From positions 2,859-66,858 of the forward strand of contig JBEEJY010000006.1 in assembly GCA_041168925.1 (NCBI GenBank): DNA of 64,000 bases, read 5' to 3'. This stretch comes from Candidatus Parcubacteria bacterium (GTDB taxonomy: Bacteria; Patescibacteriota; Minisyncoccia; Phycocordibacterales; UBA2100). The translations under genes were made by a program, and so were the position numbers. Positions 7,433 through 55,951 of this stretch are shown here, one piece after another. Under the pieces are notes generated by a model, which was not told the origin of the DNA, searched no databases, and saw only the letters and a program-made list of their open reading frames with translations. How positions within the stretch are numbered: the stretch's first letter is position 1; the number at the start of each line of letters is the position of its first letter.

Positions 7433-8093
7433 CCACGTTCCAGCCGAGCCGCTTCGCCGTCTTGTAGAGTTTCATGTTTGGATTAAAACAAATGGGTTTT
7501 GCGACAAGTTCGAGAAATGGAATATCGCTCTCCGTGTCGCCCACTCCGATCGAATGCGCGAGTGTCAGATTCTCGCGCTCGACGGCGCGCCTGACAATGG
7601 CCGCTTTGTTGAGAATTAGGTGCTCATCGATCACCTTGCCGGTAAAAAGTTCTTGCGGGCCAGTTTCATAGAGCATGCCGTAGGTCTTGTCGAATCCCAA
7701 CCGCGGACAGAACTTATCGAGCACCGTTTTTGGAGAGTGCGAGACGGCGAGCAAGAAATAATCGCGCTTCTTGAGATCTTTGATGAGGTCGCGCGTGTAG
7801 CGATAAACGCGCCGCCACTGTTCATCGACAATTTCCCGTGCCGCATCGGCAAGCGCGGAGTAGTGAATACCTTTCAAATGTCCGACGAAGGCTTCGACGA
7901 CCGCGCCGATGTACTCTTCATAATCGCCTTCGCGATTGAGCCAGCGTTCGTAATCGCGTTCGTATACGTCGCGCGTTTCTTTCGGAAATGTACCGTTCTC
8001 GATCAGTCGATTTACGACCTGGATCAGAAGCGAGGAGCGAAAGATCGTACCGTCGACGTCGAATATCGCGACTTTCCGCTTCGCATTGGCCAT
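7398..8093 (-). CDS. HAD-superfamily hydrolase (HAD-IB / SerB-like phosphatase fold)
   Basis: The N-terminal motif I VAIFDVDGTIF carries the DxDGT nucleophile, and a later GVGDTESDIPF contains the GDxxxD motif IV. Confidence 0.7.
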   Translation of the reverse strand: MANAKRKVAIFDVDGTIFRSSLLIQVVNRLIENGTFPKETRDVYERDYERWLNREGDYEEYIGAVVEAFVGHLKGIHYSALADAAREIVDEQWRRVYRYTRDLIKDLKKRDYFLLAVSHSPKTVLDKFCPRLGFDKTYGMLYETGPQELFTGKVIDEHLILNKAAIVRRAVERENLTLAHSIGVGDTESDIPFLELVAKPICFNPNMKLYKTAKRLGWNVVVERKDVVYEL

Positions 8094-9387
8094 GTCGACA
8101 TACTACCAAAGCCTGAAAAATTTAGTATTCTGGGCTCTAATGGTGCGAAAAATCAAGAATATCCTCTATTTTTTCGTCGCGTCATACTTCGCCTTCTTCG
8201 CGCGCCTCAAGCTCAAGCGCTGGAAGCCTCGGGTTGTCGCGGTAACAGGCTCCAACGGGAAAACAACGACGCTCCACCTTATCGAAGCGGCGCTTGGCGA
8301 CCTGGCGCGCTACTCGCACGGCGCAAACTCGAGCTTTGGCATCCCTTTCGACATCCTGGGCTTGAAGCGTCGGACATTTTCACCCGTCGAGTGGTTTTGG
8401 CTCGTGCTTGCGGCTCCTTTTTGCGTTCTGAAGCGCCCATATCGAGAACGTATCTACGTCGCCGAGGCCGATTGCGACCGACCGGGCGAGGGTGGATTTC
8501 TGAGCGCGCTTCTGAGACCGGAGATCGTGCTGTGGCTTTCTTCGGCGCGAACGCACAGCATGAATTTTGATAAGAGCGTGCGTGCGGGAGCGTTTCCAAA
8601 CGTCGAGGAGGCGATCGCGCATGAGTTTGGTTATTTCCCCGAATATGCCGCGCGGCTCGTCATCGTCAACGGCGATATCCCGCTCATTGAGGCGCAGCTT
8701 CCGAGAACGAAGACGGTCGTGCATCGCATTCGCGAGAGTGCGCTCGGGCAATACGAAATCGCCGCAAGCGGCACGAGCTTCACGATTCACGGGCGATCGT
8801 ATCGGTTCCCCTATTTGCTGCCAAGAGAAACGTTCTATTCGATCGCGGCCGTGCTCGAACTTGCCGCGTATCTCGACGTTTCTCGACACGTTGATTTTTC
8901 GACGTACGCGATGCCGCCCGGCCGCAGCTCGATATTCAAAGGCACGCAAGGGACGACCATAATCGACAGCACGTACAACGCGAACGCGTCGTCAACTACC
9001 GCGCTGCTTGGCATGGTAGAGCGACTGCCGGGCGAGCAATGGCTCGTCTTTGGGGACATGATCGAGCAGGGTGAAGAAGAAAAGGAAGAGCACGAGAAAG
9101 TCGCGCTGCGTATCGCATCCGGCAACTTCGCAAAAGTATTATTGGTCGGCCCGCGGACAAGACGCTTCGCGCAGCCGCACATTCCAAACGCCATCGCCTA
9201 CGATGCGCCGCGCGACGCGCTTGCATATCTGCTGCGCACCATCAAAGGCGGCGAGACGCTCATTTTCAAAGGTGCTCGATTCCTGGAAGGAATCGTCGAG
9301 CACCTGCTCGCCGACAAGAAAGACGTCGAGAAGCTCTGCCGCCGAGAGGCGATCTGGCGCAAGCGGCGCGCGCAATGGGGATTATGA
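8086..9387 (+). CDS. Mur ligase family protein (MurF-like UDP-MurNAc-peptide ligase)
   Basis: The P-loop VVAVTGSNGKTTT is typical of Mur ligases, followed by the expected central and C-terminal domain lengths. The C-terminal region fits a Mur ligase C-terminal domain. Confidence 0.65.
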   Translation: MAMSTYYQSLKNLVFWALMVRKIKNILYFFVASYFAFFARLKLKRWKPRVVAVTGSNGKTTTLHLIEAALGDLARYSHGANSSFGIPFDILGLKRRTFSPVEWFWLVLAAPFCVLKRPYRERIYVAEADCDRPGEGGFLSALLRPEIVLWLSSARTHSMNFDKSVRAGAFPNVEEAIAHEFGYFPEYAARLVIVNGDIPLIEAQLPRTKTVVHRIRESALGQYEIAASGTSFTIHGRSYRFPYLLPRETFYSIAAVLELAAYLDVSRHVDFSTYAMPPGRSSIFKGTQGTTIIDSTYNANASSTTALLGMVERLPGEQWLVFGDMIEQGEEEKEEHEKVALRIASGNFAKVLLVGPRTRRFAQPHIPNAIAYDAPRDALAYLLRTIKGGETLIFKGARFLEGIVEHLLADKKDVEKLCRREAIWRKRRAQWGL

Positions 9388-10067
9388 AACTTTTCATTCT
9401 TCACGGATGGACCTACCAGACGGCGACTTGGGATGCGCTGCTCGGCGAATTGCGTAAGCGCGGGATCGAGTACGAATTCCTGCTCTTGCCGGGTCTCACC
9501 GACGGTACGAATCCGGTCTGGAACATCGACGACTACATTGACTGGCTCAAATCGAAAATCGGCAACGAACGCGTCGTTCTCTACGGCCACTCGGCAGGCG
9601 GTCGCCTCTCGCTCGCATTTGCGCTCAAGTACCCGACTCAAGTCGAACGACTCATTCTCGAAGACAGCGCGGGCATTCCGCCGCGAGGGTTACGTAAGCT
9701 AAAACGCGACTTTTTCCGCGTGTTTTCCCCGCTGAATAAGATTCTTATGCCGCCGGAGGCGCTCCGTCGCGCGTTCTACAGGCTTATCCGCGAGAACGAC
9801 TACGGCCGCGCAACGCCCGAAATGCGCAAAACGCTCGCAAATCTCGTGTCTATAGACTTACGAAACGGACTCAAGAACATCCGCTGTCCGACCCTGATCA
9901 TCTGGGGCAAGGGAGACAAAACGACTCCGCTCATCGACGGGCAGTTGATGCATGAAGAAATCGCCGGCTCGCGCTTGCAAGTCATCCCGGATGCCCGCCA
10001 TTCCCCGCACATAACCCATCCGAAAGAAGTGGCGGGACTTGTCGCGAGCGAACTGCGAAATACATGA
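9375..10067 (+). CDS. Alpha/beta-fold hydrolase
   Basis: The nucleophile elbow G-H-S-A-G-G (LYGHSAGGRLS) and a C-terminal His motif (DARHSPH) match this fold. The start overlaps the upstream gene by 13 nt. Confidence 0.7.
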   Translation: MGIMKLFILHGWTYQTATWDALLGELRKRGIEYEFLLLPGLTDGTNPVWNIDDYIDWLKSKIGNERVVLYGHSAGGRLSLAFALKYPTQVERLILEDSAGIPPRGLRKLKRDFFRVFSPLNKILMPPEALRRAFYRLIRENDYGRATPEMRKTLANLVSIDLRNGLKNIRCPTLIIWGKGDKTTPLIDGQLMHEEIAGSRLQVIPDARHSPHITHPKEVAGLVASELRNT

Positions 10068-12286
10068 ATATATTCAACTCCCTCGGCTCAAATTACGATC
10101 TTTCGACTGCCATGCGGATCCTCTTCGCCGTCGGGAGCGCCGGCGCGAAGCGACGACTCATCAAGGGGCTTGAAAGTCGGTACGGCGGAAAGGCTATACT
10201 GACGTACAAAGGTCGCGAGGCGCTCCTGCTTGCCCTTCGCGCGCTCCCTGAAAAAGGCGCGGTCGTCATGAACGGCTTCACCTGTCTCGCGGTGTACGAG
10301 GCGATCGTCGCGAGCGGGCATGAGGTGTGTTACGTCGACGTGCCCGCGCACGAACTCGAATTCTCTCCGGAATCGCTGCGCGAGGTGCTTGCGACGCGCA
10401 ACGACATCAAAGCGGTCATCGTGCAAAATACGCTCGGCATTCCCTGCGATATGCGGCAGATTCACGCGCTCTGCCGCGAACATGGCGTCGTTCTCATCGA
10501 AGATCTCGCGCACTCGATCGGAGCACGGTATGCTTCGGGAGAAGAAACCGGCACGATCGGGGATTTTGTGGTTCTTTCATTCGGCCAGGACAAAGTGGTA
10601 GACGCGGTCGCCGGGGGCGTCCTTATCGTTCGCGCTTCTTCTTTTGCGAGCGCCGTCCGAAAACCCGAGCAACACGTCTCGCTCGTGCGGCAGCTGAAAG
10701 ATCGTTTGTATCCGCTCCTCTCTATCAGCGTGCGCGCCGCGTATAAGCTCGGTTTCGGCCCGATCTACCATGCTTGCATCAGGTCGCTTCGATTGCTTTC
10801 CACGCCCCTCGGCGAGCCCAGCGAGAAAGTACGATCCCTTCCCGGATGGTATTGCTCGAATATTCTCCGTCAGATGGACTACCTTCCCGCGATCGCGAAA
10901 CATCGGGAAGAAATCGCGAAAATATACGCCGTGCACTTGGAAGGGAGCCTTCTGCCTCACCGCGTATTCCGGCACATCCCGCATTCGTCGAATGTACGCT
11001 TCCCCATTTTCATACAGGGTCGAAATAGGTTGTGCGCGCATATGAAAACGCATGGCATCCGTATCGCCGATACATGGTACGACGCGCCGGTCGCGCCGAA
11101 AAAGTATCTTCGAAGGACGAACTACCGCAGCGGTACGTGTCCGCATGCGGAACATCTCGCGGAGCGCATCGTGAACCTTCCCACGCACGTCAACGTCTCG
11201 CAAGACGACGCCCGTGCTATCGCATCGCTCATCAACGAATGGGCGCGGGCGGATCTCGCACTTCCCTACCACGTCCGCGCAGCGAACGAATCTGCATGGG
11301 AAGATTTCATACGGCGGCAAAAACCGCACAGTTTTCTGCACTCGTGGAAATGGGGCTTGCTGCAGGAAGAAACAGGCTCGCGCGTGTTTCGACTCGGCGC
11401 GTACAAAGGCGGGAATCTCGTTGCAATAGCGCTCTTGATACGAACGCAAGCGCGGCGCGGGACGTTTTTGCTCTGTCCACACGGACCTTTGATGGCAGCG
11501 GGAGAAGATTCAGCGCCGATCTTCAACTTGTTGGTCGAAGAGTGTACGCGACTCGGCCGCGCTGAAGGCTGCGATTTCTTGCGTTTCTGTCCGCTCGCGG
11601 AGGATTCGGAGCGCGATCGCGCGCTGTATCGCAATGCCGGATTCAGAGACGCTCCGATCCACATGCATCCGGAACTGGCTTGGATGCTCGATATCACAAG
11701 ATCGGAAGACGAGCTCTTGAGAGAGATGCGAAAAACGACCCGGTACCTTGTGCGCAAGATGGAAAAGGATGGCGTCGAAATCGCGCGAAGCAACGACCCA
11801 GCCGACATCGAGAAATTCTGGCCGATTTATGAAGCGACGGCGGCGCGGCAGCATTTTACGACCTTCAAAAAATCCGACTTGCGAAAAGAGTTCGAGCTTT
11901 ATGCAAAAGACGATCAGGCGCTTTTCTTTTTCGGATCCCAACGCGGTTCCCTTGTCGCAGCTGCCATCATCATTTTTTACGGCGGACAGGCTTTCTATCA
12001 TCATTCCGGTTCGGCATCATATGACGCCGGAGGCGCGAATGTCTCATATCTATTGCAATGGCGCGTGATACAAGAGGCAAAACGCCGCGGCTGCACGCTC
12101 TACAATCTCTGGGGTATCGCACCCGATGACCGGCCGGACCATCCGTGGGCGGGATTGTCGCTTTTCAAGAAAGGCTTCGGGGGGTTCGCGGAACGTTACG
12201 TCCATGCGCAAGACAAGCCGCTCTCCGCAAAGTACGGCCTCAACTACCTCGTCGAAACCGCGCGCCGGATCAAGCGCGGATTTTAA
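10064..12286 (+). CDS. Fusion protein: N-terminal DegT/DnrJ/EryC1/StrS-family PLP-dependent sugar aminotransferase joined to a C-terminal FemABX-family (aminoacyl-tRNA-dependent) peptidyltransferase
   Basis: Residues 1-390 show the DegT-family fold markers, including the PLP lysine (VVLSFGQDKVVDAVAGGVL), CDMRQIHALCREHGVVLIEDLAHSIG, and a C-terminal NLPTHVNVS motif. Residues 400-740 carry the FemAB signatures FLHSWKWGLLQEE (F-QS-W-W), FYHHSGSASYDAGGANVSYLLQWRVIQEAKRRGCTLYNLWGI and LFKKGFGGF. The whole forms one continuous 740-aa ORF. Confidence 0.75.
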   Translation: MNIFNSLGSNYDLSTAMRILFAVGSAGAKRRLIKGLESRYGGKAILTYKGREALLLALRALPEKGAVVMNGFTCLAVYEAIVASGHEVCYVDVPAHELEFSPESLREVLATRNDIKAVIVQNTLGIPCDMRQIHALCREHGVVLIEDLAHSIGARYASGEETGTIGDFVVLSFGQDKVVDAVAGGVLIVRASSFASAVRKPEQHVSLVRQLKDRLYPLLSISVRAAYKLGFGPIYHACIRSLRLLSTPLGEPSEKVRSLPGWYCSNILRQMDYLPAIAKHREEIAKIYAVHLEGSLLPHRVFRHIPHSSNVRFPIFIQGRNRLCAHMKTHGIRIADTWYDAPVAPKKYLRRTNYRSGTCPHAEHLAERIVNLPTHVNVSQDDARAIASLINEWARADLALPYHVRAANESAWEDFIRRQKPHSFLHSWKWGLLQEETGSRVFRLGAYKGGNLVAIALLIRTQARRGTFLLCPHGPLMAAGEDSAPIFNLLVEECTRLGRAEGCDFLRFCPLAEDSERDRALYRNAGFRDAPIHMHPELAWMLDITRSEDELLREMRKTTRYLVRKMEKDGVEIARSNDPADIEKFWPIYEATAARQHFTTFKKSDLRKEFELYAKDDQALFFFGSQRGSLVAAAIIIFYGGQAFYHHSGSASYDAGGANVSYLLQWRVIQEAKRRGCTLYNLWGIAPDDRPDHPWAGLSLFKKGFGGFAERYVHAQDKPLSAKYGLNYLVETARRIKRGF

Positions 12287-12941
12287 ACCAGCGATTTGCC
12301 GCTTGTGGCCAGATCGCGGTGAGCGCATGTTTTGAGCAGTCGTGCGGACGCGCGGGGCAGATGTAACGGCCATAGAGGACGAGACCGTTGTTGACATACT
12401 TCCAGTCTTTTTTCGGGATAAGGCGCTCGAGGTCGTGCGAAATTTTCTTGAGATCATCGTTATCTGAAAGATCGAAACGTTTAACGAATCGCTTTACGTG
12501 CGTGTCGGTCGGAATCCCTTCCCATGCGTCGTAGAGCTCGCCGAGAATCACGTGGGCAGTCTTATACCCGACACCCGGCAGAGTTTGAAGCTCTTTCGCA
12601 GTACGTGGTACCCGCCCGTTAAAATCGGCGGAGACTTTCTTCGCGGCCGCAATGATGTGCCTGGCTTTATTCCGAAAAAATGAGACCGACGAGATTTCTC
12701 GCTCGAAAACTCGAGGGTTCGCATCCGCAAAACAAGACGGTTTTTTATATTTCTTAAAAAGACCCGCGGTCACCTTATTCACTTGCTTATCGGTCGTCTG
12801 TGCTGACAGGACGACTGCAACGAGAAACTGGAACGGGGTTTTGTATGCTAGTTCGCTTTTAGGCAGAGGGTACGCTTTTTTAAGGTACGCGACGATACGA
12901 CGCGCTCGCGCCTGTCTCTCCTGTCCTTGCGATGCGTTCAT
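12270..12941 (-). CDS. nth: Endonuclease III (DNA-(apurinic or apyrimidinic site) lyase)
   Basis: Contains the helix-hairpin-helix LPGVGYKTAHVILGE, the catalytic Lys/Asp region, and the C-terminal 4Fe-4S ligand pattern C-x6-C-x2-C-x5-C (CPARPHDCSKHALTAIWPQ is partially visible). Confidence 0.85.
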   Translation of the reverse strand: MNASQGQERQARARRIVAYLKKAYPLPKSELAYKTPFQFLVAVVLSAQTTDKQVNKVTAGLFKKYKKPSCFADANPRVFEREISSVSFFRNKARHIIAAAKKVSADFNGRVPRTAKELQTLPGVGYKTAHVILGELYDAWEGIPTDTHVKRFVKRFDLSDNDDLKKISHDLERLIPKKDWKYVNNGLVLYGRYICPARPHDCSKHALTAIWPQAANRWFKIRA

Positions 12942-13684
12942 TAGCGAATGAAAAACGTCGCGCGAGCCGTGACCATCACCTGCTTGTCGATGGTCGAGGT
13001 GTCGTACGAGCCGTAGTCGGAAATATCGACGGAATTCGGCTGCATCACTTGCACGACTCCGCTTGAAGCGGACTTGAGCGCTCCGACGCTTTGGCCGGTC
13101 GATTTCGCGATCGATTCGGCGCGTGCTTTCGCATCTTCTACCGCTTTTCCGATAAGCGCCACGCGAACGCTGGGAAGCGAAGAAACGTAATATTCGGGCT
13201 GGCCGGCGGACACGAGAATCCCCTGCGCGGCAAGCTCTCCGATATCCTTCGATAAGGATTCAATTTGCGACGGGTCGTCCGATGAGACCGTGATCTGCTC
13301 GCGAATTGTGTAGCGACGCGGCGCGTTGGAATCGTTCGAGTATGAATAGTCCTGGTCGACCGAAACGGGAGTCGTGCTGATGCGGCCTTCAGGAATGCCG
13401 CCCTTCGAAAAAAAGGTAAGAACAGCTTGCGCATCGCGTGCGACCCGGCTTTGAGCGGACGGCACTTCCGATTCGTAGGCGGATCGACTGACCGACACGC
13501 TCCATTTTGCGGAATCGGCCTTCAGAGCCTGCGTCGCGGAGCCGGTCACCGAAAGCGTGTTGTCCATAGAACGGACATTGTAGAAGGTGAGGGAACCGAT
13601 AAGGGCGGCGATAACGATGCCGAGCCCCAAGACCCCCGCCGCTGCCACCATGTCTTTCTGCATCATGGGAATCACTATACGCAC
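12941..13684 (-). CDS. SIMPL/DUF541-family periplasmic protein (YggE-like), membrane-anchored
   Basis: 247 aa with an N-terminal TM helix, then a repeat-like SVTGSA...RDAQAV / KAVEDAKARAESIAKSTGQSVGAL region resembling the SIMPL domain. This is a weak family-level call made by eye. Confidence 0.45.
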   Translation of the reverse strand: MRIVIPMMQKDMVAAAGVLGLGIVIAALIGSLTFYNVRSMDNTLSVTGSATQALKADSAKWSVSVSRSAYESEVPSAQSRVARDAQAVLTFFSKGGIPEGRISTTPVSVDQDYSYSNDSNAPRRYTIREQITVSSDDPSQIESLSKDIGELAAQGILVSAGQPEYYVSSLPSVRVALIGKAVEDAKARAESIAKSTGQSVGALKSASSGVVQVMQPNSVDISDYGSYDTSTIDKQVMVTARATFFIR

Positions 13685-16479: not shown

Positions 16480-17409
16480 ATGAACGCTATTAGCAGAACT
16501 GTGGCGACTGCGTTTGTCGCTGCCGCCGTCGTAATGCCCCTTGCGGCATCGGCGCAATCGACCGACCTGCAAAACCAGATCCAGTCGCTCTTAAATCAAA
16601 TCAAGGCGCTGCAAGAGCAGTTGCGAGCGCTTGTTGCCTCGAGCTCGGCTGCGGGAAGCGGCATCTGGATGATGGGCTCGACTACTCCGCCGTGGGGTAC
16701 GCCGCCCGGACAAATCGCGAAGGCTGCGTGCATTCGCCTCAACAGAAACCTGGACATCGGCTCTCAAGGCGACGACGTGAAAAAACTTCAGGAGATACTC
16801 GCGGAAGATTCGGACAACGATTATCATGCCGGCATTACGGGATTTTTCGGTCCGCGCACGGCGCAGGCGATGATGCGATTTCAAATGCGGTTCAACATCG
16901 CCTCGTCGAGCAATGGAAGTGTCGGACCGATGACACGCGGGTTCTTCGAACGCGCGTGCGGCGAGGGTATGGGTGACGACGAAAAGGACGCGCGCTCCAT
17001 CGTCGGAAACATCAGCTCCGTCGGCTCATCTTCGTTCGTGGTTACCATCAACGCAAACACGTCACGGACAATCAACTTCACCGCCTCGACCACGATCGAG
17101 ATCGTACCGAGCGCGACGTCTTCGCCTATAACCGGGTCATCGGCAGATCTCGCGGTGGGCAAAGTGATACACGCAATCGGGACGCCGAATGCGGATGGCA
17201 GTTTGACGGCGACTTTGATCAGAATCGGCGTGCCGCTTCCGCCGCCGCGCCCCCAGAAACCGATCTTCGAGTTTGACAAACTCGGGCGCAAGATCGTCAA
17301 CACCGTCATGGACGACCTTCGCGGCAGAGATAATCGCTTGCCGAACCGTCCTCCCAAACCTGGAATGATGCCCATCAACGGCGGGCCGAACACCGGTCGA
17401 GGATTGTAA
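16480..17409 (+). CDS. Secreted protein with a peptidoglycan-binding (PG_binding_1-like) domain
   Basis: A signal peptide MNAISRTVATAFVAAAVVMPLAASAQS is followed by a coiled-coil-like QNQIQSLLNQIKALQEQLRAL. A domain DIGSQGDDVKKLQEILA...GITGFFGPRTAQAMMRFQ matches the PG-binding pattern (G..G.dV..LQ..L....DG.FG..T..AV..FQ). The C-terminus is Pro/Gly-rich. Confidence 0.6.
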   Translation: MNAISRTVATAFVAAAVVMPLAASAQSTDLQNQIQSLLNQIKALQEQLRALVASSSAAGSGIWMMGSTTPPWGTPPGQIAKAACIRLNRNLDIGSQGDDVKKLQEILAEDSDNDYHAGITGFFGPRTAQAMMRFQMRFNIASSSNGSVGPMTRGFFERACGEGMGDDEKDARSIVGNISSVGSSSFVVTINANTSRTINFTASTTIEIVPSATSSPITGSSADLAVGKVIHAIGTPNADGSLTATLIRIGVPLPPPRPQKPIFEFDKLGRKIVNTVMDDLRGRDNRLPNRPPKPGMMPINGGPNTGRGL

Positions 17410-31685: not shown

Positions 31686-33494
31686 TTAGTAGTTAACCTG
31701 GAAAGTCAGTTGTTGAGTCGCTCCGGCGCTGTTGGTGATGTAGACCGGATATGAACCCGGAAGAACCGGCTGGAGATACTGCGCGCACACGCCGCCCTGC
31801 GGGGTAACGTCGCACGGCGAGAGGTAGGAAGGCACCGTGTAGTAGAGCGTTGTGCCGTTTTGCGAATAGGCGTGCATCATCCCTCCCGTACCGAAGTGGA
31901 TCGTGTTGTCGCTCGTAAACCCGCTGCCGCTCAAGATGATCTGCGTCCCGACATGGCCCGAAGTAGGCGCGATCGAGGAGAGCGTGACCGAGCCCGCGCT
32001 CGTCCCACCGACGCTTATCGTCGCGGTCGCAGAATTCTGCTGACCGCTCTGGTTGCTCGCCGTGAAGGTGATCGTGTACGTGCCTTGATTCTGGTACACG
32101 TGGGTGAAGGTGATCGTTTGCGCTCCGGCACCGGTAACGATCTGCGGCGTGCCTGCTCCCATGTATCCGAATCCTGTATCTCCCCAATCGACCGAGACCG
32201 AGGTAAACGAGCTGCCGCCCACGTTGAGCGTGAGCGACCACGTGCCGCCTTGTCCAACCCCGAGCGAGGTCGGGCCGGTGACATTGGTGATCGAAGGCGC
32301 ATTCGAGCCGGAGAGGGCCGTGATCGTGAATGGCACTGGATTGCTCGTCGAGCCCCATCCGTTCGTCACGGAAACGTTGTACGTCCCGAGACCGATTGGC
32401 TGATAGCCAAAACCCGAGAGCGTGCTCGGCACCGAGAACGAAAGCGAGGTGCCGTCGAAGGAGCGCAGGTTGGCGATAATGCCGTTGCCGAAATGGACCG
32501 TGTTGTTCGATGACGTGAAGCCGTAACCGAAGATCGTCACATTGGTGCCGACCGCGCCGGATTGCGGCGTGAGATAGTTGATCGACATCTGCCCCTGCGG
32601 ACAATTATACGGAGTGGCGCATGGTTGGGTCGGCGGATACGTAGGCGGATAGGTCGGATACGTGCAATTCTCATACGGATAAGCGCCACACGGGCCAGGA
32701 ACCCCGATCACGTTGAATGTAAGCGCATTCGAGGTGCCGCGCGAGTTGCCGACGGAGATCGAGACCGCGCCGCCGGTCACTGACGGAAGATTGAACGTCA
32801 GCATCGAGCCGTTCGCCGAGGGAACATTCGAGAGTGTCGTGCCGCCGACGTATACGCTGTTGCTGATAGCGTCGAAACCGGACCCGTAGACGGTAATCGG
32901 CGTGCCAGGTGTTCCGGAGGTTGCGGAAAGCGACGAGAGGGTCGGTGCCGAGTTGTAGTTTTGGCATGAGTAGAAGTACGGAAAGGTGCCGCAGGAGCCG
33001 TAGCCGAAACCGCCGGCGACCTGTCCGTAATAATTGGACGGGTATGAGGGAAACGCGCCGTAGTTCGGATAGGTCGGCGTGTACGCATTCCAATTCCAAT
33101 TGTATGCATTCCCCTGCCCGAGCAGCGTTCCAGGCATACGGCAGCTTGCGTTTGAGATCGCGGCACGAGTCCCGGCATCAACAATGCCGGTTGTCGGTAA
33201 GCCTTGTGTTTGCTGAAAATCGCGCACCGCGGCAAGCGTCGCTTGGCCGAAGTATCCGGTAACCATCCACGAGCCGGAACCCGGATAATTTTGCGCGACG
33301 AGGAAGTTCTGGAGATGAGTAACCTGCGAGCCTTTCGCGCCGAACGCGAGATCACCCGTGAGATTCACGCAACCTCCCGAATACGTGCTCATCGGCGAGA
33401 TTCCGTACGAGGGACCATAATAGCTTTGTGCCGAAGCGGCCGAGGCGCTTGCGAGGGTAAGCGCGATAACCGACGAAGCGAGGAGTTTGTTCAT
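31686..33494 (-). CDS. Large secreted surface protein: N-terminal peptidoglycan-binding domain followed by repeated IPT/TIG-like and PKD-like beta-sandwich domains
   Basis: A signal peptide MNKLLASSVIALTLASASAASAQS is followed by the PG-binding pattern LAFGAKGSQVTHLQNFL...TGYFGQATLAAVRDFQ...GLPTTGIVDAGT. Three repeat units have the form LSS.SATSG.PGT.ITV.GSGF...N.V.FG (IPT-like). A PKD-like FTHVYQNQGTYTITFTASN is also present. 602 aa. Confidence 0.65.
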   Translation of the reverse strand: MNKLLASSVIALTLASASAASAQSYYGPSYGISPMSTYSGGCVNLTGDLAFGAKGSQVTHLQNFLVAQNYPGSGSWMVTGYFGQATLAAVRDFQQTQGLPTTGIVDAGTRAAISNASCRMPGTLLGQGNAYNWNWNAYTPTYPNYGAFPSYPSNYYGQVAGGFGYGSCGTFPYFYSCQNYNSAPTLSSLSATSGTPGTPITVYGSGFDAISNSVYVGGTTLSNVPSANGSMLTFNLPSVTGGAVSISVGNSRGTSNALTFNVIGVPGPCGAYPYENCTYPTYPPTYPPTQPCATPYNCPQGQMSINYLTPQSGAVGTNVTIFGYGFTSSNNTVHFGNGIIANLRSFDGTSLSFSVPSTLSGFGYQPIGLGTYNVSVTNGWGSTSNPVPFTITALSGSNAPSITNVTGPTSLGVGQGGTWSLTLNVGGSSFTSVSVDWGDTGFGYMGAGTPQIVTGAGAQTITFTHVYQNQGTYTITFTASNQSGQQNSATATISVGGTSAGSVTLSSIAPTSGHVGTQIILSGSGFTSDNTIHFGTGGMMHAYSQNGTTLYYTVPSYLSPCDVTPQGGVCAQYLQPVLPGSYPVYITNSAGATQQLTFQVNY

Positions 33495-35253: not shown

Positions 35254-36177
35254 TCACGATGAAAGACAAGTGCGTCTGTCGCGCATGAGCTCGATAGGAA
35301 TTTCGCGCGTTGATCGCACGCCTTCGCGTCCGAACATGACGTCCAGTAAAAGACCGTGACTCACGGCGTCGTTCCAATACTGGTCAAAAATGAAATTGCC
35401 GAGTGAGTAGTAAATATCTTTCTCCCGATAGACTTCGCGTTCCTGAACGATGTGGGGATGCGAACCGATGACTATCGAAGCGCCCGCATCGATAAATTGA
35501 TGCGCGAGTGCGCGCACGCGCGGCAGAGGCTCGACATATTCTTCTCCCCAATGCGCGTATACGACCACCACTCTTCCTTCGCGCGCCTCGACACTGACTT
35601 GCGCGACCGTGTGATCGGGCTTGTCCGATGTCCAATCGCTCCAATTGACGAATGAAAGTGGCACGCCGCCTACTTCGAGGCGCGCAACCCGCTCGCCCTC
35701 AAGAGCGTCTGGATCGCCGAAAAATGCGATCCCCGCTTCACTCAGATGCTGCTTCGTTTCGCGAAGCCCGGCTCTACTGAAATTCAGTATGTGGTTGTTC
35801 CCGATCGAGACAAGGCGAATGTTGTGGGCGAAGAGCAATGGCGCAGTCGAAGTCGGGAAAGTGAAGATGTAGTTGTCGGGTACTCCTACCCCGCTCCCAA
35901 CGCTGCGGGAGAGATTGACGGTTATGGGTCCTTCGAGATTCGCAACAACAAGATCGGCATCGGCAAGAAAATCACCGATGCAGGAAAATAGATATTCGCC
36001 TCCTTGCGCCGCCATCGCGGTGCGAATGGAGCGATCGAACATCATGTCGCCGCCAAAGATGATTCTGGCTTCAGGTTCCCGTGGAAGCGAGACCGGAGCG
36101 AAATACGCGACGGCATGAGAAGGAAGCAGTCCGGCGAAGAGTGCCGAGAGTGTCGCAAGGAATTCCGCGAGTCCCAT
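35254..36177 (-). CDS. CapA/PgsA-family (PGA_cap) metallophosphoesterase-fold protein
   Basis: IIFGGDMMFDR, VVANLEGPIT, IVIGSHPHIVQ and YSLGNFIFDQ are the conserved blocks of the CapA family (poly-gamma-glutamate capsule biosynthesis-like). An N-terminal TM helix is present. Confidence 0.75.
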   Translation of the reverse strand: MGLAEFLATLSALFAGLLPSHAVAYFAPVSLPREPEARIIFGGDMMFDRSIRTAMAAQGGEYLFSCIGDFLADADLVVANLEGPITVNLSRSVGSGVGVPDNYIFTFPTSTAPLLFAHNIRLVSIGNNHILNFSRAGLRETKQHLSEAGIAFFGDPDALEGERVARLEVGGVPLSFVNWSDWTSDKPDHTVAQVSVEAREGRVVVVYAHWGEEYVEPLPRVRALAHQFIDAGASIVIGSHPHIVQEREVYREKDIYYSLGNFIFDQYWNDAVSHGLLLDVMFGREGVRSTREIPIELMRDRRTCLSS

Positions 36178-41293: not shown

Positions 41294-42175
41294 TTATACC
41301 GTACTCTCCCGTCCGGCAATATCTTTCTCCGAGTCGATGAAAGATTGAATGTCTCCTTCGAGCACATGCTCGACGTCGCGGCGCTCGTGTTCGGTGCGGT
41401 GATCTTTGACGAGCTGGTACGGATGGAGCACGTATGAGCGTATCTGACTTCCCCACTCGATCTTCGTCGAGGCGCCGGCAGATAGCCCGCGTGACTGATT
41501 GATCTGTGCGGTTTCCTTGAGCTGAAATAATTTTCCGCGAATCATCTCGAGCGCTTTTTCTCTATTTTGCGCCTGGCTCCTCTCGCTTGTAACGTGCACG
41601 GTGATGCCCGATGGCTTGTGCGTCATCCGTACCGCAGTATCGCGTTTGTTGACGTTTTGCCCGCCCGGGCCGCCAGAACGGGCGACCGTGATCTCAAGCT
41701 CGCTTTCTGGAACGTGCGTGTCGTCGACATCGGGAAGCCTCGGCAGTACCTCGACGAGCGAGAAGCTCGTTTGTCGCTTGCCGGCCGCGTTGAAAGGCGA
41801 CATGCGCACCAGCCGGTGCACCCCCGCTTCTTTTTTCAAACTGCCGTACGCGTCACGTCCGACCACTTCAAACGAAACACTTCGGTATCCGCCCAGCGAA
41901 TTCGCGTTCGAAGAAAGCAGCACTGTTCGCCAGTCGCGCGAGGCGGCGTATTTCCCGTACATTTCAAAAAGCATTCGTGAAAAATCTTCGGCGTCGTCGC
42001 CGCCTGCGCCGGAAATTATCGAGACAATGGCGTCTCCTTTGTCGTATTGCCCTACACCTGCGATCTTTGCCTTCAGCTCTTGGTACTCTTTCACGGCGGT
42101 CTGTGCCTTCTCCTTATCATTCCAAAAATCCGCGGAACCCATAGCAGCTTCTATCTCCGCGATTCTAATTTCCAT
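41294..42175 (-). CDS. prfB: Peptide chain release factor 2 (N-terminally short form)
   Basis: Contains the GGQ motif ([20 protein letters not shown]) and the SPF tripeptide (RMSPFNAAG), which marks RF2 rather than RF1. The ORF-track start at 42190 lies 1 nt from the tRNA-Thr 3' end, so the ATG at 42175 (MEIRIAEIE) is preferred. No +1 frameshift site is visible. Confidence 0.8.
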
Positions 42176-42191
42176 TTTTACTTTATCCATG

Positions 42192-42263
42192 AGCCGACCC
42201 GGGGAGTTGAACCCCGAACCTACGGTTTACGATACCGTTGCTCTACCATTGAGCTAGGTCGGC
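42192..42263 (-). tRNA. tRNA-Thr (anticodon CGU)
   Basis: Reverse complement GCCGACC-TA-GCTC-AATGGTA-GAGC-A-ACGGT-ATCGTAA-ACCGT-AGGTT-CGGGG-TTCAACT-CCCCG-GGTCGGC-T folds as a cloverleaf with anticodon CGT. CCA is not encoded. Confidence 0.8.
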
Positions 42264-42365
42264 AACAGTGCGAATATATCATATTTTTGGTTCTGTGAGA
42301 CGCATTCGTTTCAGCATTCGTTTCAATAATTCCCGGCGGCGAAACCCTGTTGGGTTTGATTCTTG

Positions 42366-42607
42366 AGCCGATGGCCGGAATTGAACCGGCGACCTACTCC
42401 TTCATTGCTACCTCCGTTTATGTATTATCGGAGGATTAGACTGTATATCCGACTCAACGAGTCGCTCTTGTCAGTCGTTCGGGCGCAAGCGCCACGGTCT
42501 GAACCTCGTACAGGCCTTTGACCGTTATTCGAGCGTGCAACAACAGATTGCTCTGTTGCGGGCAGTTGTCTACCATGGAGTTGCTCTACCAACTGAGCTA
42601 CATCGGC
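42366..42607 (-). tRNA. tRNA-Thr (anticodon GGU) interrupted by a 169-nt intron (42403..42571) in the anticodon loop between nt 36 and 37; candidate group I intron
   Basis: The 5' exon (42572..42607 reverse complement) is GCCGATG-TA-GCTC-AGTTGGTA-GAGC-A-ACTCC-ATGGT. The 3' exon (42366..42402 reverse complement) is AA-GGAGT-AGGTC-GCCGG-TTCAATT-CCGGC-CATCGGC-T. All four stems pair, and the variable loop AGGTC matches E. coli tRNA-Thr(GGU). The 5' exon ends in U and the insert ends in G, as group I splicing requires. The insert contains GGATATACAGTC, reminiscent of the P7 3' strand (GAUAUAGUC). Confidence 0.6.
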
Positions 42608-50332: not shown

Positions 50333-50989
50333 CTACGAAGAGGTGCCGGCTCCGTCATTGACCCAGCGATAGAGATTCTCGGAGATCGTGAAGTTCTTGA
50401 TCTCAAATGCGCCTGTTCGCCAGGTGATCGTCACGGATACCCGTATCTCGTTGTGACCGCTGTCGACGTAGGCGGCCCGCACCATGCGAGTGAAATTCGT
50501 GTTCGTCCATCCGGTTCCGTATCCGTACAAGGTCCCATCGGTTTGAAGCGGAGGACAGGCGCTCTGCGGACATTCGGCTATCGAAGTAGAGGAATCGCCC
50601 GTATGGGCGTCGACGGTGAAGGGTCTTGCGCTCGCAAGCGATGTGCCGATCAGTCCCCTGTCCTCAAGAGGGCCGAAAATACTGACCGACGAAGCGTTTG
50701 CCGTGAGCGCGATCGTCAGTATTTGCGAATCTCGGATGCTTCGCAGCGCCTCGATCGCCTCCTGCGCCATGTAGAAAGCGGTGATCTGATCGCGCGCGTA
50801 ATAGGCAGACGCGAGGCTTTGCGCCGTGAGCGACATCGGAGCGACGATCGCTACGGTGAGAAGCGAGATGGCCACCAAGGTCTCGATGAGAGTGAATCCG
50901 GCGTTTTCCGCATATTTGAAAAACGTGGTCTTCTTTCCTTCGCCATCAGGACGGATTCGAGAAGGTCGATTTTTTAGGTGCCGGGTCAT
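50333..50989 (-). CDS. Type IV pilin-like protein (minor pilin)
   Basis: The class III signal AGFTLIETLVAISLLTVAIVAPMS has Gly-1, Phe+1 and Glu+5. Confidence 0.7.
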   Translation of the reverse strand: MTRHLKNRPSRIRPDGEGKKTTFFKYAENAGFTLIETLVAISLLTVAIVAPMSLTAQSLASAYYARDQITAFYMAQEAIEALRSIRDSQILTIALTANASSVSIFGPLEDRGLIGTSLASARPFTVDAHTGDSSTSIAECPQSACPPLQTDGTLYGYGTGWTNTNFTRMVRAAYVDSGHNEIRVSVTITWRTGAFEIKNFTISENLYRWVNDGAGTSS

Positions 50990-51585
50990 AGATCGAGAAC
51001 ACGCTGCACAGCGGTCGCTTCGATATGGAACGTCGTGACGGCCGAGGAACCGGCGGCACCTGCGCTTCCCCGTATCACAATGACGACTTTGGGCTGAACG
51101 GTGTCCGTCTTTTGCGTGCCGACCACATAGAATTGCATGTCGTCGATCGTGACTTCTGGAGCGGTAATCGCCACCGCGGTCTGATTGTTTTCGGATTTCT
51201 CAATTTGATGCGTCGAGCTATTGAAACTGTAGGTCCATTTCTGCGAACCGCAGCTTCCCGACAAGCAATACGGACGAAATGAAAGGGTGGCCGATCCGTG
51301 CGAGCAATCCGTCGCATACTCGCTCGAGTGATTGTTGCAGTTTATGGATGCGTCGTAGTTGCTACCCATGCGGATCGAGCGCACCAGGCCGTCGAGGGTG
51401 ATGTTCAGGTTGTTCATGACGGACTGCAGCGCGTGAGCCTTGCGATTCGCATTGACGAGAGCCAGAAGCGTGCTTACGCATACGAGTATGACGACCGCGA
51501 ACAATGCGATGGCGACGATCATCTCAACGAGCGTGAAGCCACTCGAGCCATTTTTTATTTTCTTTCGCGACGTCTCGTTTCTCAT
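50986..51585 (-). CDS. Type IV pilin-like protein (minor pilin)
   Basis: Start set to the ATG at 51585 (MRNETSRKKIKNGSSGFTLVEMIVAIALFAVV) rather than the long ORF-track extension. The leader carries the G/FTLVE signal. The Cys-containing C-terminal domain and the 4-nt overlap with the downstream pilin suggest coupling. Confidence 0.65.
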   Translation of the reverse strand: MRNETSRKKIKNGSSGFTLVEMIVAIALFAVVILVCVSTLLALVNANRKAHALQSVMNNLNITLDGLVRSIRMGSNYDASINCNNHSSEYATDCSHGSATLSFRPYCLSGSCGSQKWTYSFNSSTHQIEKSENNQTAVAITAPEVTIDDMQFYVVGTQKTDTVQPKVVIVIRGSAGAAGSSAVTTFHIEATAVQRVLDL

Positions 51586-51589
51586 GGCG

Positions 51590-52186
51590 CTACGAACTGG
51601 TACGGCGTACCGAGATTTGGCCGTTAGCCTCGACGACGATGTCCATGCGCTCTCCTCGAGGAGAGACCACGGTGATGCGCAGGGCTCTCTGACAGAGACT
51701 GGTGTCGACCACGCAGGAGGCTCCCGCATTACTGATCCACGCATCAGGTTCGGGACGCACGAAAATAACATCCACGCTGCCGACGCCGCAAATCTCGCTT
51801 GCCCCGGTTTGGGGCGGCGTGACGCAGAGATCCGAAATTTTGTATCCTTGCGCGATGGTCGTTTGCTGTACGATTTCACTCGCATTCTGCGCCGGATCGA
51901 ATATGCCCGTCCCGGCCGAGTCGGCAAACAGAACATAGGTATTCGGGCTCGAAAGCGCGAAGTGCATGCCGTACCCCGCGCTGAATGTTGATGAGCCGAA
52001 GCGCTGTACCGATATTCCGTACACCTGCGCTTGGCGGATGGAAAGACCGATGTCGTAGGCAAGACTCTCGAGCTGGACGATGCCTCCGAAGCGGTTGTTG
52101 TTCGCAAGAACGACGCTCGTCACGACGACGATGATGGCCGTTACGACAAGAAGTTCCACCAGCGTAAAACCCCGAGTACCTCTCAC
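51590..52186 (-). CDS. Type IV pilin-like protein (minor pilin)
   Basis: The leader ...VRGTRGFTLVELLVVTAIIVVV is read from a candidate GTG start at 52184..52186. This GTG overlaps the TGA stop of the upstream prepilin peptidase as GTGA. The alternative ATG at 52258 would give a 30-aa leader that overlaps pilD by 75 nt. Confidence 0.55.
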   Translation of the reverse strand: MRGTRGFTLVELLVVTAIIVVVTSVVLANNNRFGGIVQLESLAYDIGLSIRQAQVYGISVQRFGSSTFSAGYGMHFALSSPNTYVLFADSAGTGIFDPAQNASEIVQQTTIAQGYKISDLCVTPPQTGASEICGVGSVDVIFVRPEPDAWISNAGASCVVDTSLCQRALRITVVSPRGERMDIVVEANGQISVRRTSS

Positions 52187-53088
52187 TGGAGCGGAAACAG
52201 ACGGGCGAGCAAATCGAAACCGTACAACATTGAGTACCAAAGAATGAAGCAGCTGCATATGAGAAAAGGCCCGAATGGGATCTCGCTTTTCATTGTAAAC
52301 CCCGGCCCGTCGTTCGAAATGGCTTTTCCCCACGGTGAGACGGGGAGCGGGATATCTCGCATAAATGAACGCCAGCGTTCTGATGAGACGACCAGCAAGG
52401 GTATGCTTACGACGCCCCCGATTATGAATGCAAGGACGATCGACGCAAGGCCATGCACCGGACCAAGCAGCCAACCGATCCCGAGAGCGAGCTTCACGTC
52501 GCCAAATCCCATCCAAGCGCCGCGGGAAAACATCCAGAGCGCGAAGAGCGGCAGCGCCGAGAGCGGGCCGGCGAGGAGGTACGGGAGCATTGATTGGTCG
52601 GATTGCAATAGTGCGCCAAACGGAGGAAAAATAGAGAGAAACGCGAGCGCGTCGAAAGTGTATACCCATGCGTCGGGAATGATCGTATGATACAGATCAT
52701 AGACGGCGATCGCGATGAGAAGCGCCGCGATGGCGCAGAAGATCGCTCGATACTCGTATCCGGGAAAGGGGGCGCCCCCGATCAGCGCGAACGCGACGGC
52801 AGTGAAGAGTTCGACGAGCGGATACTGGATCGATATCCTTTCTTTGCAGCCGCCGCAACGGCCGCGCAAGAAGATCCACGAGAACACCGGTATCATTTCG
52901 TACCACCGCAACTGGCGGGCGCAGCGGGGACACTGGCTCCTGCCACGCAACGTGCGCGCGTCGTATCGCAAGATAAGCACGTTGAGAAAGCTGCCGATGA
53001 TGAGACCGAAAAGGCCGAACACGAGCGCGATCACGATATGAGTATACCCGAAAAACCCGCCGTTCGGCGGGTTTTTATCACTTTTCAA
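52183..53088 (-). CDS. pilD: Prepilin peptidase (A24 family, PilD-type) with N-terminal zinc-ribbon domain
   Basis: CPRCARQLRWYEMIPVFSWIFLRGRCGGCKE (tetra-Cys N-terminal domain) is followed by the A24 membrane domain with conserved Asp residues. 301 aa. Confidence 0.85.
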   Translation of the reverse strand: MKSDKNPPNGGFFGYTHIVIALVFGLFGLIIGSFLNVLILRYDARTLRGRSQCPRCARQLRWYEMIPVFSWIFLRGRCGGCKERISIQYPLVELFTAVAFALIGGAPFPGYEYRAIFCAIAALLIAIAVYDLYHTIIPDAWVYTFDALAFLSIFPPFGALLQSDQSMLPYLLAGPLSALPLFALWMFSRGAWMGFGDVKLALGIGWLLGPVHGLASIVLAFIIGGVVSIPLLVVSSERWRSFMRDIPLPVSPWGKAISNDGPGFTMKSEIPFGPFLICSCFILWYSMLYGFDLLARLFPLQ

Positions 53089-53094
53089 ACTGAA

Positions 53095-53595
53095 TCACGG
53101 TTTGACGCAGTAGACGACCTCGCTCGATAAGCCCGCGTTCGCGCTGCAATCGGTCGCTGAACCGTTGATCGTGATCGCTTGGGCCGCATCGCTATCACTC
53201 GACAGAGCGCTGTGGCCCGCAGTCTCAAGAATCGCGCCGAGCGCATAGCTCGAACAGATCGTGGCGCTGTTGTCGCAGCTGGCCGGAAGCGCCACAAAGC
53301 CGTATGAATTGCTTCCGCCGCTCGGATCGTTCGGAATCGTGGAAATGTAGCCAGGGGTAACGAGGTTCGCGGTGGTAACACCGGCGGCGAACGTGCCGCC
53401 CGAAGGATACTTGCCATTCGCATCGTAGTAGAGCTCGAGCGCGAGCTGGAGTTGCTTGATGTCCGCGACGCGTCGGGCGTCACGGCCCTTTTTTCGAGCA
53501 CTGTTGAGTGATGCGAGGACAATCGATGAAAGAATCCCTATGATGGCGATGACCACCAGAAGCTCGATAAGGGTGAAGCCGCGTCGTGTATTCAT
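53095..53595 (-). CDS. pilA: Type IV major pilin-like protein (PilA-type)
   Basis: MNTRRGFTLIELLVVIAIIGILSSIVLASLNSARKKG is a canonical short-leader class III signal with a hydrophobic helix. 166 aa with a C-terminal Cys pair. Confidence 0.8.
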   Translation of the reverse strand: MNTRRGFTLIELLVVIAIIGILSSIVLASLNSARKKGRDARRVADIKQLQLALELYYDANGKYPSGGTFAAGVTTANLVTPGYISTIPNDPSGGSNSYGFVALPASCDNSATICSSYALGAILETAGHSALSSDSDAAQAITINGSATDCSANAGLSSEVVYCVKP

Positions 53596-53649
53596 ATGGG
53601 CTCATTATACTGTAGTCGCGCTCCCCTGTCGCCCCTCTGTGGATATCCG

Positions 53650-54858
53650 CTAGAAGGATGAGGCGATGTTATAAATCGGAAGCAAGACAGACGCAAGAAG
53701 GACGGCGACGCCGACTGCCAGAACGACGATCATGAGGGGCTCGATCAAACTGACGAGCGTGTCCACCGCGTTGTTGACCTCGCGGCGATAGAATCGCGCC
53801 ATCGTCTCGAGAATGGTGCCCATGTTGCCCGTTTCTTCGCCGATCTTGATCATAGCAACGACGATGCCGGGAATTTCCGTATGTTTGCGCAGCGCCTCCG
53901 AAAGCGGCAGCCCGCCCTTCACATCGTTCGCCGCTTCCGCGAGGATTTTCTCGTAGACCGCATCGCCGACGACCGAGCCGGTAATCTCGAGACCGCGCAG
54001 GATTTGGATTCCGCTTTTGAGCATGGTCGAAAGGTTGTCGGAGACGCGCGAAAGGAATATCTTTTTATAGATATTGCCGACTGCGGGCATCTCAAGCCGC
54101 GCCCGGGAAAGCATCTCCCGCCCGCGCTCCGTGCGCGAGAATCGGAAAAGGAACCCGACGCCGACAACGAGCAGGATGATGATAAGCAGGATGTAATGCG
54201 CCACGAATGACGACATGGCGATGACGACCTTGGTGTAGATCGGGATATCTTGTCCGACTTCCGCCAACATGTCCGCGAGTTTCGGAATGACGAGCGTCAT
54301 CATGAGCGTCATCACGACAAGAAATGTAAGAATGATGAACGCGGGATACACGAGTGCATTGCGGGCTTTTTGCGTGATCTCGTAGTTGCGATCGAGATAG
54401 TCCGCGAGAAAGGAGAAGGTCTCGTCGAGCTTGCCCGATTCTTCCCCGGCGCGCACCATGTTGACGTAAAAGGCGGAAAACACCTCCGGGTGCCGCGCGA
54501 GCGCCGCGGAGATCGAGCTGCCGCTTTGAAGGTCGTTGGCGACGGCGGTCAGCTTATCGGCGAGCGCAGGCGTGCGCGCTTCCGCCGCAAGGAGCCGAAA
54601 GGCGCGCAGCGCCGACACCTGCGCTTCAAAGAGCGTCGTGATCTGGCGCGAAAGCATGACGATGTCGGCGTTGGTCACGCGGTCGAAAAGCGCGAGGCGC
54701 CGCCCGAGCATCGAGGCGCTCTCGGATGGATCGATACCGGAAATGATGAGGCCGCGGCGCTGCAGTGCGCCGATCGCGACGTCCATGTTGACCGCATCAA
54801 TCGTGCCGTGCCGCTCGTTTCCGTCGACATCGAGCGCGGTGTATTTGAAAAGACTCAT
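53650..54858 (-). CDS. pilC: Type IV pilus platform protein PilC (GspF family)
   Basis: 402 aa with a duplicated T2SSF domain pattern (two cytoplasmic domains each followed by a TM segment); for example ...GLPLSEALRKHTEIPGIVVAMIKIGEETGNMGTILETMARFY. Confidence 0.9.
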   Translation of the reverse strand: MSLFKYTALDVDGNERHGTIDAVNMDVAIGALQRRGLIISGIDPSESASMLGRRLALFDRVTNADIVMLSRQITTLFEAQVSALRAFRLLAAEARTPALADKLTAVANDLQSGSSISAALARHPEVFSAFYVNMVRAGEESGKLDETFSFLADYLDRNYEITQKARNALVYPAFIILTFLVVMTLMMTLVIPKLADMLAEVGQDIPIYTKVVIAMSSFVAHYILLIIILLVVGVGFLFRFSRTERGREMLSRARLEMPAVGNIYKKIFLSRVSDNLSTMLKSGIQILRGLEITGSVVGDAVYEKILAEAANDVKGGLPLSEALRKHTEIPGIVVAMIKIGEETGNMGTILETMARFYRREVNNAVDTLVSLIEPLMIVVLAVGVAVLLASVLLPIYNIASSF

Positions 54859-54874
54859 ACCTCAACCGCGAAGA

Positions 54875-55939: not shown

Positions 55940-55951
55940 AGATGAATACTA

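Follow-up and report, generated by a model that had tools for sequence, protein, structure and literature searches.

The window, that is, the whole 64,000-nucleotide stretch of contig JBEEJY010000006.1 analyzed here (Candidatus Parcubacteria bacterium, assembly GCA_041168925.1), carries at positions 10064..12286 of the forward strand an open reading frame (ORF) that begins with ATG and, in the ORF list of the window, encodes 740 amino acids (AA) without an internal stop. An initial annotation made from the letters alone had described it as one uninterrupted gene joining a DegT-family sugar aminotransferase to a FemABX-family aminoacyl-tRNA-dependent transferase, and the continuity of the frame as well as both family assignments proved right. 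The first part is a DegT-like domain of the fold-type-I pyridoxal phosphate (PLP) enzymes (10064..11260, +; AA 1-399), with the codons of Asp147 and Lys177 at 10502-10504 and 10592-10594; the second is a FemX-type double-GNAT aminoacyl-tRNA transferase domain (11264..12286, +; AA 401-740), with Y645 encoded at 11996-11998 and F701-K702 at 12164-12169.

Two further genes precede the fusion on the same strand, both of them named as neighbours in the initial annotation: a MurF-like Mur ligase (8086..9387, +), whose ORF of 433 AA has a public call of 415 AA starting from M19 at nt 8140, and an esterase-like alpha/beta hydrolase of 230 AA (9375..10067, +), which overlaps both of its neighbours by a few nucleotides. 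These are genes 1 and 2 of a four-gene operon (the module), and the 740-AA ORF is a genuine, evolutionarily maintained fusion of genes 3 and 4.

Integrity of the DegT-Fem fusion

The N-terminal half corresponds to Pfam DegT_DnrJ_EryC1 (PF01041), with 145 bits against a cut-off of 19.8 (E 4.4e-42), and the C-terminal half to FemAB (PF02388), which it matches in three stretches with 106.5 bits against a cut-off of 24 (E 1.8e-30); Acetyltransf_6 is also above its cut-off on the latter half (42.2 bits, cut-off 22). Both families thus pass the curated Pfam cut-offs, in agreement with the Foldseek comparisons given below, and the FemAB score answers the question of whether the C-terminal half might be an unrelated GNAT domain. 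The motifs quoted in the initial annotation, Schiff-base lysine and Fem blocks included, are all present and conserved, being located in the protein at 171-178 (LSFGQDKV, with K177 as the lysine), 424 (FLHSWKWG), 643 (AFYHHSGS) and 700 (LFKKGFGG). An AlphaFold2 model built from a 92-sequence alignment (pLDDT 93.7, pTM 0.83) has no disordered linker; at the junction the PLP part closes with helix 380-398 and the Fem part opens at strand 402.

The possibility that two genes were joined by a sequencing or assembly frameshift deserved attention, since the DegT and Fem genes of unfused relatives overlap in different frames, so that a one-base error could fuse them, and one public contig carries only a 414-AA call. 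An identical 2223-nt ORF (100 %) is, however, present both in a contig from a JGI metagenome (L087) and in a Logan SRA assembly made independently (L088). In a third, collinear contig (L089) the frame likewise stays open through the junction, and the 414-AA gene call there is an artefact of the contig edge. Three independent assemblies are therefore identical across the junction, without a stop or frameshift between the halves. Moreover, the fusion is retained with the same ~735-AA architecture in ~58 protein clusters (53-63 % identity), the majority belonging to Parcubacteria such as Kaiserbacteria, and the AlphaFold2 model is confident through the junction. A frameshift or misassembly was rejected on account of the three agreeing assemblies and the ~58 diverged fused homologues, its probability being close to nil.

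The strain represented by L089 comes from another metagenome and shows 1 mismatch in 2.9 kb with respect to the window; it also has an 88-nt deletion at window positions 13456-13543, which falls inside a SIMPL/DUF541 gene and truncates that gene.

A conserved operon with recurrent fusions

Relatives were sought by scanning one genome per species and were found in 263 species genomes, which bear the taxon labels Kaiser-, Nomura-, Levy-, Davies-, Gottesman-, Roizman-, Collier-, Doudna-, Berkel- and Kerfeldbacteria, and Saccharibacteria. Neighbourhoods of ±10 kb were compared for 80 loci from the scan plus those collected earlier (~85 loci). Nearly all of them hold ligase, hydrolase, DegT and Fem in this order on one strand, and the flanks of the module contain no further conserved gene family. 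The same fusion is found in related genomes, within an operon that is conserved across Patescibacteria (Candidate Phyla Radiation, CPR).

The state of fusion varies among the loci: 41 are fully unfused, such as L004 and L005 with four separate genes, more than 20 have DegT-Fem, one has hydrolase-DegT and one has ligase-DegT-Fem. In the window, as in L001, the layout is ligase / hydrolase / DegT-Fem; L002 displays hydrolase / ligase-DegT-Fem, the triple fusion being 1293 AA long, and L003 displays ligase / hydrolase-DegT / Fem, with P0110 as the hydrolase-DegT fusion protein. The ligase is fused to DegT-Fem in P0063. For P0059 the product names given by JGI had suggested the inverse Fem-DegT order, which we rejected since the Pfam order on the contig is DegT-Fem, like in the window. 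In eight loci of Saccharibacteria/Nanosynbacter (L061-L063, L066, L069, L072, L075 and L083) a DegT-Fem protein of 715 AA is followed by a second Fem of 342 AA (~10001-13168); two Fem domains in this operon are what a two-residue branch would lead one to expect.

An exhaustive representative search gathered 519 clusters of the DegT-like domain family at E <= 1e-30, in which fused forms of 706-743 AA occur at several levels of divergence. When fusion state was mapped by Fitch parsimony on a neighbour-joining tree of the DegT domain, 5 state changes were obtained, one of them due to a truncated contig; this implies at least 4 independent DegT-Fem fusions from an unfused ancestor. In the unfused relatives the DegT stop overlaps the Fem start, the genes overlapping by 4-29 nt, and the repeated fusion is explained by this arrangement because overlapping genes need only a one-base indel. 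The initial annotation had presented the protein as two normally separate enzymes; two enzymes they are, but not unrelated partners, since in other genomes they are adjacent, overlapping genes of one operon. For the same reason it is the operon, and not the fused protein alone, which is the unit of function. The functional coupling of both halves, also part of that annotation, is strongly supported by their conserved adjacency and by the recurrent independent fusions.

Many module-bearing contigs, from third-party annotation (TPA) metagenome-assembled genomes, were encountered under the labels uncultured Gammaproteobacteria, Pseudomonadales or Alphaproteobacteria (L021, L024, L025, L043, L044, L047, L049, L054, L057, L064, L067, L071, L073, L074, L077 and L080). 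These are probably taxonomic mislabels, given that their DegT domains branch among Levy- and Daviesbacteria and that their gene content is CPR-like.

Peptidoglycan context and catalytic domains

The ligase of the window, which is 100 % identical to P0268 (RLZZ416_218), contains Pfam Mur_ligase_M and Mur_ligase_C. Its best NCBIfam match is murF (TIGR01143), with 129 bits against a cut-off of 288.6; relatives score 120-147 bits, likewise below it, and MurF is the best NCBIfam match of all the module ligases. Its P-loop, GSNGKTT, is found ~35 residues after the annotated start, and between ~32 and ~52 across the module ligases, compared with ~100-120 in standard Mur ligases; such an early P-loop implies that the N-terminal Mur ligase domain of ~100 residues is missing. 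Just before the P-loop, the module ligases open with a conserved aromatic-rich segment, YFxxxxYFxFFAxxKLKxW (window 8086-8250), which may be a helix that associates with the membrane or an element for docking. As for the hydrolase, it matches Pfam Abhydrolase_1/6 and Hydrolase_4, and the alignment of homologues displays as invariant a GHSxGG nucleophile elbow (G71-H72-S73-x-G75-G76), D181 and H209. Its AlphaFold2 model (pLDDT 86.9) has small carboxylesterases and BioH as best fold matches in the PDB, a search that returned generic small esterases and no indication of a specific function.

Twelve of the ~85 loci adjoin core genes for peptidoglycan or division. L067 has MurE(-GlmU-N), MurC-MurB and MurD, in this order, followed by the module, and similar mur clusters are found in L003, L041, L042, L049, L051, L057 and L074; in L002 the module is followed by a gene with a weak POTRA_1 (FtsQ-like) match, with MreC and PBP2 within 8 kb upstream. 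The module ligase is the only MurF-like gene in nine mur clusters: L067, L042, L049, L041, L074 and L003, for instance, contain MurC, MurD and sometimes MurE together with the MurF-like gene of the module and no other. The stand-alone MurC, MurD and MurE of the same clusters pass their NCBIfam cut-offs, which the MurC-MurB fusion of L067 narrowly misses (301.9 against 335.1). We also considered the module ligase as a paralogue accompanying a canonical MurF, and discarded this option: only L079 has a second MurF-like gene, which is N-terminally short and within the diversity of the family. From position and best match we infer, with reservations, that the module ligase is the divergent MurF-type enzyme of the lineage, a label that goes no further than this because the protein lacks the N-terminal domain and scores below the MurF cut-off. 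The cell-envelope context put forward in the initial annotation is borne out by an operon headed by a MurF-like ligase and by the mur-cluster neighbourhoods.

Natural chimeras are seen within these CPR mur clusters (L067, 1421-5609; L049, 571-5937), in the form of MurE joined with the uridyltransferase portion of GlmU, which is the N-terminal one, and of a MurC-MurB fusion. The MurE motif in module-linked clusters is EDPR, which keeps the Arg typical of enzymes of the diaminopimelate (DAP) type and does not by itself decide the third residue of the stem.

With regard to the Fem domain, Foldseek against the PDB placed it closest to FemX of Weissella viridescens (FemX_Wv; 1NE9, 4II9 and 7Z6A, TM 0.76-0.79), followed by Staphylococcus aureus FemX (6SNR, 0.70), and the alignment to the former covers residues 14-310 with ~20 % identity (E 1.5e-14). 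FemX_Wv, a UDP-MurNAc-pentapeptide:L-alanine transferase, has the same compact double-GNAT fold of ~335 AA without a coiled-coil arm, the domain of the window being 340 AA long and equally devoid of a coiled-coil insertion. Its catalytic Phe304-Lys305 pair and its Tyr254 are kept as F701-K702 and Y645, which are invariant in 63-64 of the 64 stand-alone homologues. Judging from family membership and the conserved Lys, the donor would be an aminoacyl-tRNA. The substrate of FemX_Wv is a soluble nucleotide precursor, acted on directly after the MurF step, a position consistent with the operon as well as with the triple fusion that includes the ligase; the Fem of the module differs in having a PLP enzyme and an esterase as fused or coupled partners.

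The DegT-like domain resembles the DegT/DnrJ/EryC1/StrS aminotransferases (DesI 2PO3, ArnB 1MDO, PseC 2FNU) in its PLP fold, its Lys and Asp motifs and its Pfam score: the Schiff-base K177 and D147, which would contact PLP-N1, align with the corresponding DesI residues, and Foldseek against the PDB retrieved DesI, ArnB, PseC and WbpE (TM 0.70-0.79, normalised to target). Thus both domains retain their predicted catalytic residues. The 61 stand-alone homologues share K177, D147, S172, R51, C74, D92, Q121, Y216, R312, W338 and Y339 without exception; among these, R51, C74, D92, Q121, Y216, R312, W338 and Y339 are specific to the module family, Cys74, Arg312 and Trp338-Tyr339 setting it apart from characterised aminotransferases, and the SGT phosphate loop usual in the latter is K-G-R in the former. 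The best equivalog match is PseC, with 109.7 bits against a cut-off of 423.5, and the other NCBIfam equivalogs (LegC, WecE, DesI, ArnB) score lower, all of them under their cut-offs. Overall the domain reaches ~55-110 bits against characterised sugar aminotransferases, the solved members giving only ~55 bits, whereas comparisons inside its own family give 200-480 bits; by these comparisons it is a separate, CPR-centred subfamily.

The initial annotation had proposed that the DegT domain makes an NDP-amino-sugar whose amine is then aminoacylated by Fem, yielding an aminoacyl-amino-sugar in the wall or a surface glycan. Family, PLP residues and fold do match the sugar aminotransferases, a PLP-then-Fem order suits a scheme in which the amine is made and then acylated, and Fem-like enzymes can acylate amines of small molecules (PMC12945691). 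While the family and fold stood, the pathway found no support: among the genes conserved near the module in the ~85 loci there is neither a dehydratase nor an oxidoreductase to provide a keto-sugar, nor is one found near the operon in the window, whereas a canonical CPR DegT, that of the cultivated saccharibacterium Southlakia epibionticum, is paired with such an enzyme. The distance to the best equivalog and the 519 clusters of the family point in the same direction, as do the partners that are conserved, a MurF-like ligase and an esterase, and the location of the module inside mur clusters. We consider this explanation unlikely.

Proposed function and wider significance

In the interpretation that we favour, with about even confidence, a UDP-MurNAc-peptide receives a tRNA-borne amino acid from Fem, while an amine on this precursor is made or modified by the PLP domain. 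The operon would then be part of the last cytoplasmic steps of peptidoglycan precursor synthesis, to which its MurF-type ligase would belong. With aminoacyl-tRNA as donor, the Fem domain would place an amino acid on a free amine of the UDP-MurNAc-peptide, opening a side branch, and the DegT-like domain, from a family built for binding nucleotide sugars, would carry out PLP chemistry on this UDP-linked precursor instead of running a free-standing amino-sugar pathway. It might create the acceptor amine by transamination, following the logic of the enzyme DhpH discussed below, or, once a residue has been added, it might epimerise or transaminate the free alpha-amine of that residue. The probable task of the esterase is to cleave or edit an aminoacyl ester, in a similar way to the hydrolases that are partnered with tRNA-dependent lipid aminoacylases. 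We infer these substrates and the type of PLP reaction.

Several observations weigh against this proposal. We know of no precedent for a DegT-family PLP enzyme acting on a peptide amine. The residues K36, R211 and D108, which bind the acceptor in FemX_Wv, are Q, K and C in the protein of the window, with H, S and R prevailing in the family, the alignment around K36 being uncertain; because their equivalents are not conserved, the acceptor may differ from UDP-MurNAc-pentapeptide. In ~73 of the 85 loci the module is not beside other peptidoglycan genes, and, as described above, the ligase fails the MurF cut-off and is devoid of the standard N-terminal domain. Finally, Southlakia epibionticum has Fem and MurF genes but no counterpart of the DegT or the hydrolase of the module (supplement of PMC10633639). 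Transposon sequencing in this organism found the MurF-type ligase, MurE, MurT/GatD and both Fem genes essential, the essentiality of the ligase and of Fem speaking in favour of the proposal, while its canonical DegT, located beside a Gfo/Idh/MocA oxidoreductase, was non-essential (supplement of PMC10633639). Since Southlakia has Fem and MurF without them, DegT and the hydrolase would be accessory components of the module, and their roles are the weakest-supported ones.

Three known systems are useful for comparison. DhpH, from the biosynthesis of dehydrophos in Streptomyces luridus, is like the fusion a single chain with a C-terminal Fem-like aminoacyl-tRNA transferase acting on an amine acceptor. 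Its N-terminal domain is reportedly, from the 2013 work of Bougioukou et al., a PLP enzyme that makes the amine L-Ala(P). The C-terminal domain, DhpH-C, acylates that amine (PMC12945691). DhpH is the closest precedent both for the architecture and for making an amine and then acylating it; it differs in belonging to secondary metabolism, in acting on a phosphonate amino-acid analogue, in having no link to a Mur ligase or esterase, and in its taxa and pathway.

The second comparison is with the Mur chimeras (MurE-MurF, MurC-Ddl, MurC-MurB), fusions among consecutive or co-working peptidoglycan enzymes being common (PMC10214165). The ligase of the operon shares with them the Mur middle and C-terminal domains, has MurF as best match and occupies the MurF slot; in contrast, a Mur ligase-DegT-Fem fusion is absent from the chimera types listed in PMC10214165, and the operon ligase has no N-terminal domain. 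The third is with the aminoacyl-phosphatidylglycerol synthases (aaPGS) of the MprF type and their operon-encoded hydrolases AhyD, VirJ and PesT, which likewise combine a tRNA-dependent GNAT-fold transferase with an esterase or hydrolase, the AhyD-, VirJ- and PesT-type hydrolases acting on the product of the aminoacylases encoded alongside (PMC6103681). These systems differ from the module in their membrane lipid targets, in a membrane transferase of another GNAT subfamily, and in the lack of a PLP enzyme or Mur ligase.

A different use of the same enzymes is suggested by the ligase. Among the Mur ligases only MurF takes a dipeptide. The PLP domain could make or epimerise an amino acid, or the residue at the N-terminus of a dipeptide, Fem could form the dipeptide by joining aminoacyl-tRNA and a free amino acid, and the MurF-like ligase could attach this dipeptide to UDP-MurNAc-tripeptide, replacing alanine racemase and Ddl. 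A MurF-type ligase is linked to the module in 78 loci, apart from being fused to it in P0063, and is far more divergent than the MurC, MurD and MurE of the same clusters. Moreover, phmmer found no Ddl-like ORF in the ~1.7 Mb around the module (nine mur clusters included) or in the 64-kb window, a search that covered neighbourhoods only, with an E. coli DdlB query. DhpH-C does acylate a free amino-acid analogue (PMC12945691). This analogue is reportedly a product of the fused PLP domain, from the 2013 work of Bougioukou et al. The gene table of Southlakia names no product as D-alanine-D-alanine ligase or racemase, despite essential MurC-F-type ligases, MurT/GatD and two Fem (PMC10633639 supplement), so that a source of D-amino acids for its wall is not evident from the annotation.

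However, Southlakia, without an annotated Ddl, is also without the DegT and hydrolase of the module, which thus cannot explain the absence of Ddl there, and the Fem domain is nearest to FemX enzymes that bind whole precursors. Stereochemistry is a further objection: aminoacyl-tRNA donates L-residues or Gly, and DD-transpeptidases need a D-residue at position 4. Such transpeptidases are present (PBP2 in L002), and an N-terminal epimerisation must therefore be assumed. We rate the supply of a dipeptide as unlikely, slightly below the amino-sugar pathway, and its full form, a tRNA-dependent route to the terminal stem dipeptide that dispenses with Ddl and racemase, in which Fem would join aminoacyl-tRNA to a free amino acid, the PLP domain epimerise or make one of the residues, the truncated MurF-like ligase attach the resulting dipeptide and the esterase edit, appears improbable. 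If it were true, a large part of bacterial diversity would build its wall precursor by a chemistry unseen in model bacteria.

It has also to be considered that the PLP domain might modify the amino acid while still on the tRNA, as SepCysS, SepSecS and SelA do, with Fem transferring it afterwards. Fold-type-I PLP enzymes that act on aminoacyl-tRNA are described in PMC5688128 and PMC2275076; a fusion to a tRNA-using domain would favour the hand-over, the esterase could edit aminoacyl-tRNA, and aminoacyl-tRNA synthetase genes lie directly upstream of the module in L002. Nevertheless, that synthetase neighbourhood is not conserved, the match to SepCysS is insignificant (E 0.006, 15.6 bits) and the domain is clearly of the DegT type. 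To our knowledge no DegT member binds tRNA, and we regard this alternative as highly improbable.

Regarding the remainder of the window, the initial annotation had cited CapA, GH18 and secreted proteins with peptidoglycan-binding domains as signs of envelope modification. CapA (PGA_cap) was located at 35254-36177 and PG_binding_1 proteins at 16480-17409 and 31686-33494; no GH18 was found in the window. A cluster of type IV pilus genes occupies 50986-61119 (-), comprising an N_methyl pilin-like protein, PilD, PilC, PilT-like and PilB ATPases, PilO and PilM. With introns allowed, ARAGORN detected a tRNA-Thr(GGT) at 42365-42607 (-) that carries a 169-nt intron in its anticodon loop (position 36/37), in a region that coincides with a dip in GC content (0.494 at 42-44 kb); default ARAGORN and Rfam (E <= 0.01) reported only the adjacent intron-less tRNA-Thr(CGT) at 42191-42263 (-), and no group I intron family matched. 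Next to these, a peptide chain release factor gene (41294-42190, -) encodes a short protein of 298 AA whose PCRF match begins at profile position 95, so that either its N-terminal domain is reduced or the upstream part lies in another frame.

Patescibacteria represent a large share of bacterial diversity, and their wall chemistry is essentially unstudied. Both domain families of the fusion, chimeras of Mur enzymes (PMC10214165) and an enzyme combining PLP and Fem-like domains are already known. The phylum-wide operon of murF-like, esterase, PLP and femX genes and its Rosetta-stone fusions, on the other hand, appear to be undescribed: the searchable literature yielded no description of them, nor any characterised DegT-Fem fusion, as the initial annotation had supposed, and it does not place a PLP enzyme or esterase at the MurF and FemX steps of peptidoglycan precursor synthesis. 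It is to these steps that gene order, gene overlap and four different natural fusions tie both enzymes. The rare PLP-plus-Fem-like architecture, so far represented by DhpH, an antibiotic enzyme, would hereby be extended into primary envelope metabolism. Moreover, the module is present in oral Saccharibacteria of the Nanosynbacter type and absent from Southlakia, which makes a comparison between them possible. If the coupling is functional, it would point to an unknown modification, or to an alternative route, in the synthesis of the peptidoglycan precursor of these bacteria.

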